Assembly: GCA_964525635.1 (NCBI GenBank)
Contig: CAZGJX010000073.1
Location: 1-22,290, forward strand
Direction of reading: 5' to 3'
DNA length: 22,290 bases
From: an uncultured archaeon
GTDB lineage: Archaea > Asgardarchaeota > Lokiarchaeia > Sigyniarchaeales > SOKP01
Part shown: piece after piece, positions 11,821-18,205 of the stretch
How the letters are laid out: each line of letters opens with the position of its first letter
How positions within the stretch are numbered: the first letter of the stretch is position 1
Notes under the pieces: model-generated
Seen by the model: only the letters and a program-made list of their open reading frames with translations
Database searches by the model: none
Told to the model about the DNA's origin: nothing
Translations under genes and position numbers: made by a program

Positions 11821-11843
11821 GGTTCTATACAAAATTCAGTGAT
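11821..11843 (+). repeat. IS terminal inverted repeat (transposase 3' side)
   Basis: GGTTCTATACAAAATTCAGTGAT. Confidence 0.7.
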
Positions 11844-11874
11844 GCATAAAATCTCGTTTTAAATGATGAATTGA

Positions 11875-12711
11875 TTAAATTATAGCAAAATATTGATACC
11901 AAACTTGTTGGTAATTACCAAACCATAGTTCTAACTTCTTAATTGTCTGAGCAAAATGATTTGACTGCCCTCTAATAGAAGCATCTCTTCCTATTTCTTG
12001 AAGTACTTCTCGATATCGTCTATATTTGGCGCGATAAAAGCGAATATATTCAGGAAATCTTCTAAAATTATGCCTGAACATACGATAATCGAGAACTCTC
12101 TGCGCCCCCCTAGCTGTCATCATCCTGCGTTTAAACGAAGGATAGTAGGTATACTTCTTATGATTGGCTTCTAATAGATTATTCGTTTTTGGAATACTTG
12201 GATTTCGCTGATGGGCTATAATTTTATAAAACCCGCCTTGCAAATTCTTCAGAGCTGTTTGAAGATGGTTAATCTTCCTTCCTTGTAATCGCTTTATTGT
12301 GCTCCGAACAATCTCTAATTTAATATATGCATCCGTTTCATTCTTCGAATTTATGACATTATAAAATCGTTTAAGGAGCCAACGCCATTGTTTGGGAATA
12401 GGTTTTATCGATTGAGTAGATAATCCACAGAAGGCTTTTACATGTTTTGAGATCATCCATTTCACATGAGTTAAACAATTCTGCTGGATAATATGTTTAA
12501 AACTATGGGTTCGAAGGAGCCCACCTAGATTTGTTGTCAAATCCTTTACAAGGCTTTTGATCCGTAGAGTATTGTGACAACGAGCTTCTTTAAACAGATG
12601 ATATCCTGCTTGTCTTCCCATCGATTCGGATATCATTGCTCCTGGAACAAATTTCGTCACCACATCCACCGTATCTAATGCGTACATTCTCTTCCCACTA
12701 ATTCGCATATG
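11875..12711 (-). CDS. DDE transposase, exon 2 (278 aa)
   Basis: Starts HMRISGKRMYALDTVD directly after the intron 3' end. Contains the second Asp (LVKD), QNCLTH (CxxH) and TNNLLE. The first 21 aa of the ORF-track model (12712-12774) are intron domain V/VI sequence. Confidence 0.9.
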   Translation of the reverse strand, partial: HMRISGKRMYALDTVDVVTKFVPGAMISESMGRQAGYHLFKEARCHNTLRIKSLVKDLTTNLGGLLRTHSFKHIIQQNCLTHVKWMISKHVKAFCGLSTQSIKPIPKQWRWLLKRFYNVINSKNETDAYIKLEIVRSTIKRLQGRKINHLQTALKNLQGGFYKIIAHQRNPSIPKTNNLLEANHKKYTYYPSFKRRMMTARGAQRVLDYRMFRHNFRRFPEYIRFYRAKYRRYREVLQEIGRDASIRGQSNHFAQTIKKLELWFGNYQQVWYQYFAII

Positions 12712-12752
12712 GTCGAGTAGGTCGGGATTGTTACCAATCCCTTCCCCTCTAA

Positions 12753-12786
12753 GAACCGTGCGTGCGACTTTCACCGCACACGGCTC
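12753..12786 (-). ncRNA. Group II intron catalytic domain V
   Basis: AGC triad, GAAA tetraloop, 34-nt hairpin. Confidence 0.95.
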
Positions 12787-12876
12787 AGGCAGAGAGTTCC
12801 AATCACGTCCCCGCGTACCCTTTCTTCATTCCACGTCACCGCTTCCTGAGTACTTAAGTTAAGTGATAATTGATGG

Positions 12877-14349
12877 TTAAGTCATTGCATATCTAATTTC
12901 CTCATATCCCCTTCTTCTCCAATAATCCTTAACCTTAGGGTTTGGATCTAAAGGAGATTTATCGCCAACTATAGACTTATATTTCAATATCTTGGTATCA
13001 CTTGCTTTTCTTAATGTATACCCTGTTTTATCAACTCTAAAAGTCCATTTTCTGTTATCAACTTTTCCATAGTACTTATTAGCTATCCATCTCTTACCTT
13101 TCTTATCATTCTTATGTCTTCTTACACACCAACGCCATATTTGTTGCCATAGTACCTTGTCCACTATTGAAAACGTTTGAAATGCATCAGAAAATCTATA
13201 ATACATAGCCCAGCCCCTAATCTTAGGGTTGAGCAGAGCTATAAACTTTCCCTGTTCCATCTGCTTATGAGTCCAAATAATAGATCTCATACTGTCTAAG
13301 AATTTCTTCACTCGTTCCTTTTGGGGTTTGATGTATAGTTTTTGTCTTGGCTGCTCAATCGTGAATCCTAAGAAATTAAATCCTTGTTCCTTATTTGTAA
13401 TTCTTGTTTTCTCTCTTTTCAAATTTATATCTCGTTTTCTAAGGAAGTTCACCAATTCTGGGATTATCCTTTTCATTGCCTCCTTCGTTTTTGTCATTAC
13501 TATAAAATCATCTGCATAAAGGATAGCGATTCCATCCTTTCCAATGGTCTCATGTATTCCGTGTAGTGCAATATTAGCTAATATTGGGCTAATTGGGCTT
13601 CCTTGAACGATACCCTTGTGTATTTTAAGTTTCTTGCCCTTGTCTATTATCCCCACTTTTAGGCATCTTTGAATAATTCTTTGGAATATATCCAATTTAT
13701 CTATAATTATTTTATGTCTTATATTATCAAAGAATTTATTGATGTCCGCATCTAATATAATTCTATCTCCTCTGTTCAACTCCATGTAGATTCGTTGTAT
13801 CGCGTCTTGGGTGCTTCTTCCAGGGCGAAACCCGAATACATCAGGGTGTAATATTGTTTCCCATTTAGCATTTAAAGCAAATGAGATTAACGTTGTCATG
13901 ACCCTATCTTTGATTGTCATTATTCCTAAGGGTCGTTTTTCCGTTATTGAGGGACATTTCCTATATCTCCGTTTATTATTTCGTATCCTTGTCCTCCAGT
14001 TCTCTTGTACTTTAGGTATGTATCGTCTTAGTACAGGCTGAAATTTATAAGTCCTATAATCAAATTTTTCTTTACTTAGTTCCATTCTTTCTTTTGATGT
14101 TAAATAGACTTTTCCATCTATTCCAGGGGTAATTTTTCCTTTATTCTTCTGGGTTATCATATAAATCGCCAATAATTTTGCTGATTCCGATCGTACCAAC
14201 AGTTTCATAAGGTTCCTTACCCGTTTATTATCACCTTTCTTGGATGCTCTGAAGATCCTACCTTGAAGTCGCCTTACATTCCGTTCCAGTTGGGAAAAGT
14301 TTATCTTATCCCACCAATCTTCTTGCCTATAGATTTGTTCAATTTTCAT
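12877..14349 (-). CDS. ltrA: Group II intron reverse transcriptase/maturase (no HNH endonuclease domain)
   Basis: RVT_N region (VRRLQGRIFRA...GKITPGIDG), RPLGI, FGFRPGRS, DADINKFFD, QGSPISPILANI, YADD, FNFLGF, X/thumb domain (LNPKIRGWAMYY). GAGGAG RBS upstream. Ends shortly after 'SPLDP...YW'. Confidence 0.95.
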   Translation of the reverse strand: MKIEQIYRQEDWWDKINFSQLERNVRRLQGRIFRASKKGDNKRVRNLMKLLVRSESAKLLAIYMITQKNKGKITPGIDGKVYLTSKERMELSKEKFDYRTYKFQPVLRRYIPKVQENWRTRIRNNKRRYRKCPSITEKRPLGIMTIKDRVMTTLISFALNAKWETILHPDVFGFRPGRSTQDAIQRIYMELNRGDRIILDADINKFFDNIRHKIIIDKLDIFQRIIQRCLKVGIIDKGKKLKIHKGIVQGSPISPILANIALHGIHETIGKDGIAILYADDFIVMTKTKEAMKRIIPELVNFLRKRDINLKREKTRITNKEQGFNFLGFTIEQPRQKLYIKPQKERVKKFLDSMRSIIWTHKQMEQGKFIALLNPKIRGWAMYYRFSDAFQTFSIVDKVLWQQIWRWCVRRHKNDKKGKRWIANKYYGKVDNRKWTFRVDKTGYTLRKASDTKILKYKSIVGDKSPLDPNPKVKDYWRRRGYEEIRYAMT

Positions 14350-14718
14350 TGTCTAACTCCTCTTATAGTTAAGGGTTCCTTCAAGGTACTTTCTCAGTCT
14401 CCACCACCTTTGAAGTCAGCAGACTTTCGTCTTGGAGCATCTCCTATATCTCATCGAATATCTCTCGATATAGGCTCCTATCCACCCTATTATTAGGCGG
14501 CATTCGCTTCCTCTTGGTTCCTCTGCCCGCTAAACCTTCCCCTTCACTTAGGATCTGGATACCGTATCTATAATCTTTTGAAAGGCGAGGAGATACCTCA
14601 TATGTCTTTCTTTTCCCTTTATAGTACGGGGTTTATCGGGTTTACCATGTTTTATATATTTGACTTTAATCGACTTCCTTAGGTACTTGCTCTCCCCCGG
14701 CTGAACTACGGATGGAAA

Positions 14719-14741
14719 AGCGATAAGAGATAATTATCGCT
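14719..14741 (-). other. Candidate EBS1 stem-loop of the intron
   Basis: 8-bp stem AGCGAUAA/UUAUCGCU with loop UUAUCUC. UAUCUC pairs 5/6 with the 5' exon end GAGAUU. Confidence 0.7.
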
Positions 14742-15023
14742 AACTGTCAGCATTACCTTTTGGTATGGCGTATCACTACCTTTCGCCACGGGGTACGTTA
14801 CGGGGGTTTATCACAAGTTCACTGTCGTTTACCATAGAAGTCCTGGCTAGCCCATCATCCGAATGGTAGTTTCGTCTGATAGTACATTGTTCCTAAAGCT
14901 TAACACATTATCGTTACCAATAATGCACCTTTAGGTAGCCACACCTATCCATCTTAGTGCCGTTTTCTTAGTATTTATTAACCTCCAAGTTTACGTATTC
15001 AAATATATAACTTCATGTCGCAC

Positions 15024-15554
15024 AATCTCATCATAGCCCCAATGTCCACTTGAGGGAATAGGTGTCTCTTGAAGCATGTCTCGTAATGGTTCTGCGACCT
15101 CATTAATCCAATTTACGATACTTGATTTCGAAATCGTAATTCCAAAATCGATTTTAAATACACGTCTAATCTGGGAGGGCATTAAGCCTTCCATATAATG
15201 CTGTCGAGCTCGTCGTTTATAGTTTTCATGATAATTTGAAAATTTAGGAAAGAGTTCCGAATAATCTGGATGTATTTCACCACATTGGGGACATCGTTTT
15301 CTCTGAATGAGGAATTGGAGTTTTCCTTTCCCATTATCGTGAATTATTACCCTCTTGTTACGTCCATTTTTTACTAAACGAGAGCCACAATCAAGACAAT
15401 GAGTTTCCTTTATTTTGACTGTATTCCCTCGCCCAATTTCAAGAGAATATCGGGATTTAATATTTGATTTGCAGTGTTTTTTCCGAAGTATTCCAATTTT
15501 CGGTTTTTTCAAGAAAGGAAAATATTTAATAAGACTGGTTTGTTCTATAAACAT
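15024..15554 (-). CDS. DDE transposase, exon 1 (177 aa: zinc ribbon, HTH, first catalytic Asp)
   Basis: CLDC...CPQC ribbon, HTH ('GLMPSQIRRVF...ISKSSIVNWI'), and 'WGYDEI' immediately before the intron GUGCG. Confidence 0.9.
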
Positions 15555-15613
15555 GGGTGATTCATTTCTTCTGTTTTTTGTATGTGGTATATGAAAACGA
15601 AGAAATGACTCCC
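15555..15613 (-). promoter_or_regulatory. Hairpin abutting the transposase start codon
   Basis: TCATTTCTTC (15562-15571) / GAAGAAATGA (15599-15608) inverted repeat, extended by GTTTT/AAAAC inside and GGG/CCC outside. Confidence 0.55.
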
Positions 15614-15735
15614 TTTAAATCTTTCCTTTTTGTTACTAAAGATTTTATTAAAATTTAACTTCAGTTTTTGAAATCAAGGATTTATATACAAGATTCTTAA
15701 GAACAAAAAACATAAGGCGACAAAAATAACTTCAA

Positions 15736-15758
15736 ATCACTTAATTTTGTACCCGATC
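15736..15758 (-). repeat. IS terminal inverted repeat (transposase 5' side)
   Basis: Reverse complement reads GATCGGGTACAAAATTAAGTGAT; the core matches the other end. Confidence 0.65.
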
Positions 15759-15971: not shown

Positions 15972-16321
15972 AAAGTTCTTTCTTTAGCGGTTTTTTTCTT
16001 TAAATACTTATATTATTTAATGATAAATAGGACTGATTAATTAATTATTAGATTTTAATAGTAATCCTTTATGCAGAATAAAGGAATCCTTCATCCCTTT
16101 ATTTACAATAAAAAAAATCATAAATATCAATTTATATATTGGTTTGGCTGAAAAAGACAATATTCAATTAATCGAGGAAAAAAAAGATATTTTTATATAG
16201 AAATAAATTGATATTTACTTTATAATTAGAATTTAGAGAAAGGGATCTTTAATATTATAAATTTTATGTATTATGTTTTTGAATATTGCATAATATAATT
16301 ACAAAAGGAAGGTGATGAGGT

Positions 16322-18205
16322 ATGAAGAGATATGTATTTAAAATATTAATAGCAGGTAGTGGAGGTATTGGGAAGACAGCTTTTTTAAAAAGGTTTGAAG
16401 AAAATGTCTTTACAGAAGATTATAAAATGACTATTGGATTTGCTCTTGATATAATCCACTATACATTGGAATTAGAAGGACAAGAATCAGTGCTAATAAC
16501 TGCCCATATAATAGATTGTGGGGGTGAGGAACGTTTTCGTCATGTTGTTGAGAACCTTGCTCAAGGATGTTCTGGAGCTTTTCTAGCTGTAGATTTAACA
16601 GATTATGAGACTTTCCAAAGTGTTCCTGAATGGTTAAAAATTATAAGAAAAAATGCTGGTTTTATACCTATTTGGTTAATTGGAAATAAATGTGATATCT
16701 CTGAGGATAAATATGAAATTGAAGATGAGGTTGCAAAAGATTATGCAGAACGAGCAAAGATGGCTGGATGGATTATGACATCAGCAAAAGAGAATATTAG
16801 GATTAAAGAAGCATGGAGATCTCTTTTTAAGTCTCTTATTGAAGAAAAAGAAGACACCCCTCTTTTAATTGAAATTGATAATCCCACAGACACCAAAGAA
16901 CAATTTAAAATAAAATTAATGGATATTTGTCAGGATAAGCAAATTGTGTCTTTTCTCACTAATGTGTTTAATGCCTTTTTAGAATATAAACCTTCAGAAG
17001 CAGAAAAAATGTTTACACTTGCTCAAGTTGGTGAGGATAGAATTTTAAATGCTTCAGAGCTACTTCATTTTATTGAGCAGATCAAGCATGAAAAAAAATT
17101 CGCAGAATTATATAATGTAGGAGATTATCTTCAAGCATTGGTTCAGATCCAAATTAGTATTAGAATGAAAGATAAAAAAGAAATAATGGCAAGTAATTTA
17201 ATAGAATGTGCTAAACATCTCAAACTTGCTGGTTATGAAAAACATTCAGCAATAACATTTGTATATGCCACATGTCAATTATTAACTTCAAATCGAGAAT
17301 TATTAAACCGAAAGCTTGATGAAGATGACTTTTATATTGATTTAATTGCTGTAGATAGGGATTTAATGGCATTTCCCTTATATCTTGTAGATGCAACAGA
17401 AATCACTAATGAAGATCCGAATCCACTTATAGGATTACTGGATAACGCTAAGAAATTCGGAGAGTATTACGGAATTGATTTAGGGAAATCAATCATTAAA
17501 GCAATTAATTGGGTTGAGGATAACTTAATAAAGCCTAAAATCACTGAAATTTCGGTAGAACCTCATCGACCATCTTCGGGAGATGATGTAAAATTATTTG
17601 TTGATATTGTAAATCCTACTGCAAAAAAAACCATTATTGAACTTCATCTTAGAGCTCCATTTTTCTCTTTTCCAGAGACTCATGTAAAAGAAATAATAGA
17701 ACCTCATACATCCAAAAAGATCGAAATTTATCTTGGGATTGTAAATACAAAAAGAAGGTCTGTAATAATCTCAATTTCCCTCAATGATGAAAATGGAGTG
17801 AGGCTTTCCACAACTTCTTATGATATAGGAATAAAGCCTTTAGACGAAAAAGTTGAGATATCTGAAATACTAATCCAACCTAAAAAGTTAAGATTAGACA
17901 ATGATGCAGAAGTAGTATTAACATTAAAAAAAAATCAAGAAAACCCATTAGACCTTATAATTCGCCTAGATCCAACAGGAATGGGGCTTCCGTCTGATGA
18001 AAAAAAATTATCTATTAAAGAAAGTATGGAGAAAATCACAATGAGTATAAAAAAGGCACAGGAACTTGGTATGCAAAGAGTTCATGCAATGGTGCTAGAT
18101 AAGGAAGGAAAACTCCTAACGGATGAAACAGCATATTTTAAAATAACTCGTTCTTTAAAGAATATTATGGGAAAGATATTAAAAATAGGATTCGATAAAA
18201 TATAG
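16322..18205 (+). CDS. Rab/Ras-like small GTPase fused to a helical region and two beta-sandwich (Ig-like) domains
   Basis: G1 GSGGIGKT, G2 MTIG, G3 DCGGEERF, G4 NKCD, G5 TSAK in aa 1-175. Helical middle. Two repeats of an 'I.EI.V.P.....D...V...L.N' beta-sandwich pattern. SD GGTGA/GAGG upstream. Confidence 0.9.
   Translation: MKRYVFKILIAGSGGIGKTAFLKRFEENVFTEDYKMTIGFALDIIHYTLELEGQESVLITAHIIDCGGEERFRHVVENLAQGCSGAFLAVDLTDYETFQSVPEWLKIIRKNAGFIPIWLIGNKCDISEDKYEIEDEVAKDYAERAKMAGWIMTSAKENIRIKEAWRSLFKSLIEEKEDTPLLIEIDNPTDTKEQFKIKLMDICQDKQIVSFLTNVFNAFLEYKPSEAEKMFTLAQVGEDRILNASELLHFIEQIKHEKKFAELYNVGDYLQALVQIQISIRMKDKKEIMASNLIECAKHLKLAGYEKHSAITFVYATCQLLTSNRELLNRKLDEDDFYIDLIAVDRDLMAFPLYLVDATEITNEDPNPLIGLLDNAKKFGEYYGIDLGKSIIKAINWVEDNLIKPKITEISVEPHRPSSGDDVKLFVDIVNPTAKKTIIELHLRAPFFSFPETHVKEIIEPHTSKKIEIYLGIVNTKRRSVIISISLNDENGVRLSTTSYDIGIKPLDEKVEISEILIQPKKLRLDNDAEVVLTLKKNQENPLDLIIRLDPTGMGLPSDEKKLSIKESMEKITMSIKKAQELGMQRVHAMVLDKEGKLLTDETAYFKITRSLKNIMGKILKIGFDKI

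Follow-up and report, generated by a model that had tools for sequence, protein, structure and literature searches.

The 22,290-nt stretch analysed here (GenBank assembly GCA_964525635.1, contig CAZGJX010000073.1, positions 1 to 22,290, hereafter the window) belongs to an uncultured Loki-type Asgard archaeon of the Promethearchaeota and carries an insertion sequence (IS) whose transposase gene is interrupted by a group II intron. We consider it likely that these are nested selfish elements, a mobile IIB-type intron lacking an endonuclease (En) domain having reverse-spliced into the WGYDEI/H codons of the IS transposase (here and below the slash in a site marks the intron position). The case is made from the exact fit of the intron boundaries to intron-less homologues and to an empty site, from the intact features of the ribozyme and its encoded protein, and from base pairing between intron and exon that was derived by covariation among related introns.

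Boundaries and integrity of the intron

The conserved ends of group II introns are both present, GUGYG as GUGCG and the 3′ AY as ...CGAC at 12712. The bases directly 3′ of exon 1 are GTGCGACATG (GTGCG at 15023-15019), exon 2 opens with CATATGCGA after the CTCGAC that closes the intron, and the junction of ligated exons would read GATGAGATT/CATATGCGA. A scripted join of the exons gives 455 amino acids followed by a stop, with no internal stops and the intron in phase 0. A first-pass annotation of this DNA had proposed the same boundaries and phase and had claimed that exact removal of the intron restores the open reading frame (ORF), all of which the sequence and the scripted join confirm. It had also staked the proposal on continuous alignment of intron-less homologues across DEI/HMR, and this is what was found. 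When longer proteins were searched with exon 2, 14 uninterrupted ones were obtained (493–516 amino acids, 53–64% identity, one of them named Promethearchaeota), and in a MAFFT alignment the joined protein is gap-free over ...WGYDEI/HMRISGKRMYALDTVD... against 14/14 of them; at the join they read WGYDE(I/V)H(L/M)(R/K). L016, an intron-less copy of the element from the same genus (78–80% identity), is on its sequence a natural empty site for the intron: the blastn match ends at 12711 and restarts at 15024, and the two pieces are contiguous in L016. The gap-free homologues together with this break mean that the join is not a chance effect.

As the source is a draft metagenome-assembled genome (MAG) of 245 contigs, an assembly or binning artefact that joined an intron to IS fragments had to be weighed. 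It is effectively refuted. Independent Logan contigs cross the 5′ junction in four runs of salt marsh DNA (X1-X4) and the 3′ junction in two of them (X1 and X2, with more than 31 nt on either side), which excludes an assembly chimera, and the boundaries agree to the base with both the end of the Rfam model and the empty site. No joint that skips the intron was seen in the contigs of these four runs, contigs being a data type that drops rare variants.

An Rfam scan, a check that the first-pass annotation had suggested, matched Intron_gpII at 68.9 bits (E 6e-12) with the match ending exactly at 12712. Domain V carries the AGC triad, and in the Rfam alignment A12718 is unpaired in the 3′ strand of domain VI (CCUACUC), which makes this base, 7 nt from the intron 3′ end as had been noted, the candidate branch point. 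The intron-encoded protein (IEP) is above the Pfam cutoffs for RVT_N (4e-28), RVT_1 (3e-38) and GIIM (4e-19), and scores 276 bits against TIGR04416, just under the cutoff of 300. No DNA-binding/endonuclease (D/En) domain was found in the IEP by Pfam and NCBIfam scans or in its sequence. The features of ribozyme and IEP are thus all intact and the intron is apparently still mobile. Between window positions 14296 and 14326, where the IEP ORF starts, seven positions spaced by multiples of three deviate from the window in short contigs of runs X1 and X3; these variants represent a second, coding-constrained allele or copy of the intron in the same samples, perhaps the copy on contig C36 of the same genome (see below).

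Table 1. Positions in the window of the insertion sequence, the interrupted gene, the intron and their pairing segments (TIR, terminal inverted repeat; EBS, exon-binding site; IBS, intron-binding site; RT, reverse transcriptase)
Feature	Position	Strand	Remarks
Upstream TIR	15736-15758	minus	core TACAAAATTAAGTGAT at 15751-15736; outer 7 nt positioned as in homologues
Transposase exon 1	15554-15024	minus	531 nt, 177 codons, last residues WGYDEI; from ORF list, sequence and alignment with homologues
IBS2	15032-15039	minus	GGGCUAUG, exon -16 to -9; 7/8 paired with EBS2, C.C at -13 (15036)
IBS1	15024-15029	minus	GAGAUU, exon -6 to -1; 5/6 paired with EBS1, U.U at -1 (15024)
Group II intron	15023-12712	minus	2312 nt, GUGCG...CUCGAC; from Rfam RF00029 and RF02012, sequence, and empty-site break against L016
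Match to group-II-D1D4-7	14959-14851	minus	Rfam RF02012, the second Rfam family in the intron
EBS2	14790-14797	minus	CGUACCCC, intron 227-234; complementary to exon -16 to -9 in five related introns
EBS1	14727-14732	minus	UAUCUC, intron 292-297; in loop of hairpin 284-304; covariation
EBS3	14692	minus	G, intron 332; pairs with IBS3, the C at 12711 (first base of exon 2)
IEP	14349-12877	minus	490 amino acids, RT and maturase X (Pfam), YADD present
Domains V and VI	12712-12788	minus	Rfam RF00029 Intron_gpII, full model 1-77, 68.9 bits (gathering score 40)
Transposase exon 2	12711-11875	minus	278 codons and stop, first residues HMRISG
Downstream TIR	11821-11843	minus	core ATCACTGAATTTTGTA at 11843-11828

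Target recognition by the intron and its relatives

For the pairing between intron and exon, seven introns (those of the window, C36A, C36B, L063, L064, L065 and L066) were cut out with their flanks and their domain I sequences were aligned. Two short stretches differ from one intron to the next and match the 5′ exon of the intron in question by complementarity (L063 excepted, see below); these are EBS1 and, about 60 nt upstream of it, EBS2. IBS2 and IBS1 are separated by a 2-nt spacer. The EBS1–IBS1 pairing is a perfect 6 bp in L064, L065, L066 and C36B, in which EBS2–IBS2 amounts to 7–8 bp, while C36A pairs at 6/6 positions in EBS1 (two of them G.U) and at 7/8 in EBS2. Intron column 332 is the sole column of the alignment that covaries with the +1 exon base, and the two pair in 7/7 introns (G-C in five, U-A in L065 and A-U in L063, the last of which was left out of the column scan and checked separately). 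Because EBS3 pairs with the first base of the 3′ exon, instead of a delta–delta′ pairing, the intron RNA appears IIB-like; and since an EBS2 is predicted from the alignment it is not IIC-like. An early EBS2 candidate chosen by eye, the loop GGUAGU at intron 245-250, was dropped after the multi-intron alignment gave other segments, and the hunt for a stretch fully complementary to the window exon as EBS1 was abandoned once the alignment had fixed the position of EBS1.

In the window EBS1 and EBS2 together pair at 12/14 positions, and both mismatches lie on synonymous third codon positions (ATT, Ile, and GGC, Gly). A fixed site would reach at least 12/14 by chance with a probability of 5e-6, and the whole 4.45-Mb genome contains just 69 sites of this quality. 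Seventeen distinct intron-less sites of the transposase family pair with the window EBS sequences at 10-14 of 14 positions (at least 11 in 16 of the 17), the site in L025, GGGGTATG-AT-GAGATA/C, at all 14. The pairing statistics and the scores of the intron-less sites argue that the intron sits at a cognate or near-cognate homing site and not at a random one, and this site consists of the codons of the transposase's most conserved motif. A further near-cognate target, unoccupied, is found on the plus strand at window 16317-16333 (GAGGTATG-AA-GAGATA/T, 13/14 pairs); it lies 560 bp from the IS and overlaps the ribosome-binding site and start codon of a gene for a 627-amino-acid small-GTPase fusion protein.

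These features suggest how the nested arrangement would have arisen. The site would be recognised by base pairing of EBS2, EBS1 and EBS3 with 8 + 6 + 1 exon nucleotides, and entry was probably by reverse splicing into single-stranded DNA at the replication fork, the route taken by En-less introns such as RmInt1 (PMC8914252).

Contig C36 of the same genome encodes a relative of the IEP (74% identity), and further relatives (64-77%) come from five genomes of the same family. L064 (G241:C58; IEP 75%) interrupts the ORF of an IS4-like DDE_Tnp_1 transposase, and its removal leaves 437 open codons, with the intron in phase 2; L066 (G181:C74; IEP 66%) lies in a homologous gene at a site 45 nt upstream. 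Each has perfectly matching EBS1 and EBS2, and the pair of sites looks as if a change of EBS had redirected the intron within a single host gene. L065 and C36B each lie inside another intron, and C36A and L063 have no spanning ORF. The relatives of the window intron therefore behave as retroelements, sitting in other transposase genes, in other introns and in intergenic DNA. The nest on C36 (G000:C36:2478-8219, minus strand; parts in L004 and L008) has four layers. Intron A, which is related to the window intron at 74% identity, is split at about position 281 by intron B (995 nt, no ORF), whose EBS1 and EBS2 are perfect matches to the sequence of intron A, and again at about 390 by a 2422-nt element C with its own domains V-VI; element C in turn contains an ORF between 28-bp inverted repeats (CCCGTAAGGGCAATGTCATTAAGTTAAG), so that an IS lies within an intron within an intron.

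L063 (G154:C88) is the closest relative by its IEP (77% identity). Its 5′ flank is unpaired with its own EBS1 and EBS2 and holds the EBS1 sequence GGUCAG in the same sense, while the pairing of EBS3 with the 3′ exon base is kept; L063 is perhaps an ectopic insertion, or perhaps its 5′ exon has been rearranged. The window's own genome also has two more group II introns in tandem (G000:C58:11665-15420, plus strand; L005-L007), with IEPs 39-47% identical to that of the window and each with its own Rfam match for domains V-VI; the second IEP matches in two pieces, 13777-14523 and 14587-15207.

The transposase, its insertion sequence and the probable effect of the intron

Exon 1 encodes a zinc-ribbon (DUF6431-like), a helix-turn-helix region and, within WGYDEI, the first catalytic Asp (D175), and exon 2 the rest of the RNase H-like core with D234, a helical insertion domain and, within NNLLE, the catalytic Glu (E358). 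The only Pfam match of the transposase is DUF6431, in exon 1; matches to IS66, IS6 and ISH6 are below threshold. The NCBIfam IS6 model gives a weak match that is continuous over the join, residues 116-176 of exon 1 corresponding to model positions 14-74 and residues 3-60 of exon 2 to positions 78-134. An exhaustive profile search defined a small family of 192 representatives, whose distant members carry DDE_Tnp_IS240 above the Pfam cutoff. No family member reaches a curated NCBIfam cutoff, that for IS256 (NF033543) included; sub-threshold IS256 matches occur in 22/46 members, and IS6, IS66, ISL3, IS256 and ISH6 all match below threshold at similar levels.

An AlphaFold (AF2) model of the family built from 46 sequences (predicted local distance difference test, pLDDT, 89.6; predicted template modelling score, pTM, 0.81) has an RNase H-like beta1-beta5 core with helices and a long helical insertion. 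It replaced a first model from a 14-sequence alignment, which at pLDDT 51 was unusable. The top Foldseek matches in the PDB are transpososome chains of ISCth4 (IS256/Mutator; E 1e-11, template modelling score 0.59), with P element transposase and retroviral integrases next, and the family profile finds ISCth4 among PDB sequences at E 2e-7 (yDEih aligned with iDAIH, VtDg with cADa and TNNllEs with TTNtiES). The ISCth4 structure (PDB 6xg8) and the model share a DDE core of RNase H type that is interrupted, after the second Asp and before the Glu, by an all-helical insertion, and the DxIH, xxD and TNxxES motifs align with the family profile; the family differs in its extra N-terminal zinc-ribbon and in its near restriction to Promethearchaeota-type genomes. 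Across the 46-sequence family alignment D249 and E373 are invariant and D190 is more than 90% conserved, and the window protein retains all three of its own residues, D175, D234 and E358. Judged by predicted fold and by profile, then, this is a DDE transposase, Mutator/IS256-like yet no filed IS256 member. The intron lies two codons past D175, in strand beta1, and its placement in the first-pass annotation beside the first catalytic Asp of a DDE transposase was right.

The TIRs of the window IS form a pair of 16 nt with 94% complementarity (TACAAAATT[A/C]AGTGAT). The same core is found at both ends of intron-less homologues, with about seven further bases before it, and the homologues L011 and L013 have clean 8-bp target duplications; at the flanks of the window IS 5/8 bases agree (AAAAGTGC vs AAAAATAT). 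By analogy with the homologues the IS would span about 11821-15758, or about 1626 bp without the intron; homology to L016 ends at about 11814 and 15777. As the intron is wholly inside the IS it would move with it, and since the TIRs flank the whole unit the suggestion made earlier that the IS can carry the intron as cargo is a reasonable one. A second left-end TIR (TACAAAATTAAGTGAT) lies about 20 nt past the right end of one IS copy on the Loki_b32 contig (L010/L041), which indicates two copies of the IS family head to tail.

The transposase family is present in 40/400 genomes of the phylum, almost all of them in the family-level group of the window genome itself, and public contigs that carry it are mostly titled Promethearchaeota or Promethearchaeia. 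Three transposase-family contigs (L050, L052 and L055; 55-69% identity) are assigned to MAGs that bear the names Spirochaetota, Bacteroidaceae and Patescibacteria; these are short and probably reflect mis-binning rather than transfer to bacteria. Among the 150 listed family representatives two short proteins that end near the site, P0027 and P0089, do not read into an intron.

The first-pass annotation had proposed that an intact intron in a protein-coding gene of an Asgard host bears on the origin of introns. Stated in full, this would be a host-type intron, with an Asgard protein gene that depends on group II splicing, and would be direct evidence for how spliceosomal introns originated. The host is indeed an Asgard archaeon and the intron stands in phase 0 in a coding gene, but that gene is the transposase of a TIR-bounded IS, the related introns have the retroelement habits described above, and group II introns in the Loki and Heimdall lineages were reported in 2015-2017 and surveyed in 2024 (PMC5709842, PMC8919778, 10.1101/2024.12.10.627823). 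We therefore hold this explanation to be very improbable; as the interrupted gene is not a cellular Asgard gene, what the locus says about intron origins is slight.

That the intron splices, how efficiently it does so and what net effect it has on the IS we infer from its sequence, so that the earlier description of a 'spliced' transposase was overstated: RmInt1, the closest analogue, ligates its exons in vivo at only 0.07% (PMC3035460). If nested elements of this kind are indeed at hand, full-length transposase would come only from spliced mRNA, whereas unspliced mRNA would meet a stop 10 codons into the intron and yield a 187-amino-acid N-terminal fragment, as predicted from the ORF list. 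By analogy with RmInt1 and Ll.LtrB the likeliest net effect is a damping of the IS rather than a neutral one.

Several observations weigh against a mobile intron in a working IS. No further copies of either exon were found in the window's own draft genome, in a kind of assembly in which repeats are often collapsed or lost; two exact degenerate patterns for the same intron-transposase junction had no match in Joint Genome Institute (JGI) metagenome contigs; the 5′-junction pattern was found among 400 genomes of the phylum in the own genome only (0/399 others); and there is no sign that the composite of intron and IS has spread. None of the listed sequencing runs that hold the locus is an RNA run, the holders being salt marsh metagenome DNA runs. 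The two EBS–IBS mismatches, of which the U.U at position -1 is splice-adjacent, could lower the use of the 5′ splice site. The window protein is also the most divergent family member compared and differs at 11 positions where the 14 homologues are invariant (leave-one-out controls 0-9), among them a C to L change next to D234, and these losses suggest that the transposase may already be under relaxed constraint.

The mismatch at -1 and the lost family-invariant residues leave room for an IS copy that is already inactive, and the same findings can be read as an insertion that is only inactivating, with no useful exon ligation, an IS copy that is in effect dead and decaying, and an intron that uses it as a safe harbour. 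Such a reading draws on the very low exon ligation of RmInt1, on the C.C at -13 in addition to the U.U, on the single copy in the draft genome and on a window protein changed at more family-invariant residues than any homologue; many IS copies of the family in relatives also carry stops. Against it stand the 455 open codons with the DDE triad kept over both exons, the synonymous nature of both mismatches, which are of the kind seen among unoccupied sites, and the intact ribozyme and IEP. We regard a merely inactivating insertion as possible, if on the whole doubtful. An opposite extension of the nested-element reading, which we think decidedly unlikely, is that the intron lineage has specialised on an Asgard-restricted IS through the codons of its catalytic motif and has made transposition a splicing-gated switch. 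A target of this sort could not drift away, and choosing it would follow the strategy of inteins and homing endonucleases. If that were true, the 187-amino-acid zinc-ribbon/helix-turn-helix fragment could sit on the ends of the IS and act as an inhibitor, the transposase being supplied from spliced mRNA.

Comparison with known systems and significance

The nearest known parallel to the proposed nesting of mobile intron and IS is RmInt1 in ISRm2011-2 of Sinorhizobium meliloti, where the low level of exon ligation has been taken to mean that the intron holds its host IS in check (PMC3035460). The two are alike in being mobile group II introns with an IEP devoid of an endonuclease domain, in having their natural homing site in an IS transposase gene, in recognising it by EBS/IBS pairing and in being carried within the IS (PMC1802570, PMC3035460). 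RmInt1 differs in having a bacterial host, another IS family and many copies per genome, whereas the window intron is archaeal and single-copy; the mobility and very low exon ligation of RmInt1 are proven experimentally, and the window intron is known as DNA sequence. Ll.LtrB, in the ltrB relaxase gene of conjugative elements of Lactococcus, restrains its relaxase (PMC6003770) and is alike in that a group II intron interrupts a key mobility gene of another element, whose spread depends on the intron and is restrained by it. It differs in that its IEP has an En domain, its host element is a conjugative plasmid and not an IS, and its effects have been shown experimentally. Among archaea, the group II introns of Methanosarcina, both RT-encoding and ORF-less, nest in one another (Dai & Zimmerly 2003, as relayed in PMC8919778 and PMC4424553), to which the C36 nest, where a relative of the window intron houses an ORF-less intron and one further intron, is similar. 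The published Methanosarcina cases are mainly intron-in-intron or intergenic, whereas the target in the window is a transposase coding sequence and the host one of the Promethearchaeota. The IEP clades that have been reported from archaea are CL1A, CL1B, C and D.

Group II introns in IS transposase genes are classic in bacteria, and the arrangement itself is already known. What is new here is the particular IS family, the homing site on the codons of a catalytic motif, and a recognition code derived by covariation. The locus thus provides a fully dissected archaeal case in which a group II intron lies within the transposase gene of an IS, and it corrects an annotation that would otherwise call two broken genes. 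With the EBS1/EBS2/EBS3 code and the natural unoccupied sites in relatives, the lineage would lend itself to experimental work on En-less retrohoming in Asgard archaea. More generally, Loki-type genomes hold several interacting layers of mobile DNA, with introns lodged in transposases and in other introns, and an IS lodged in an intron.

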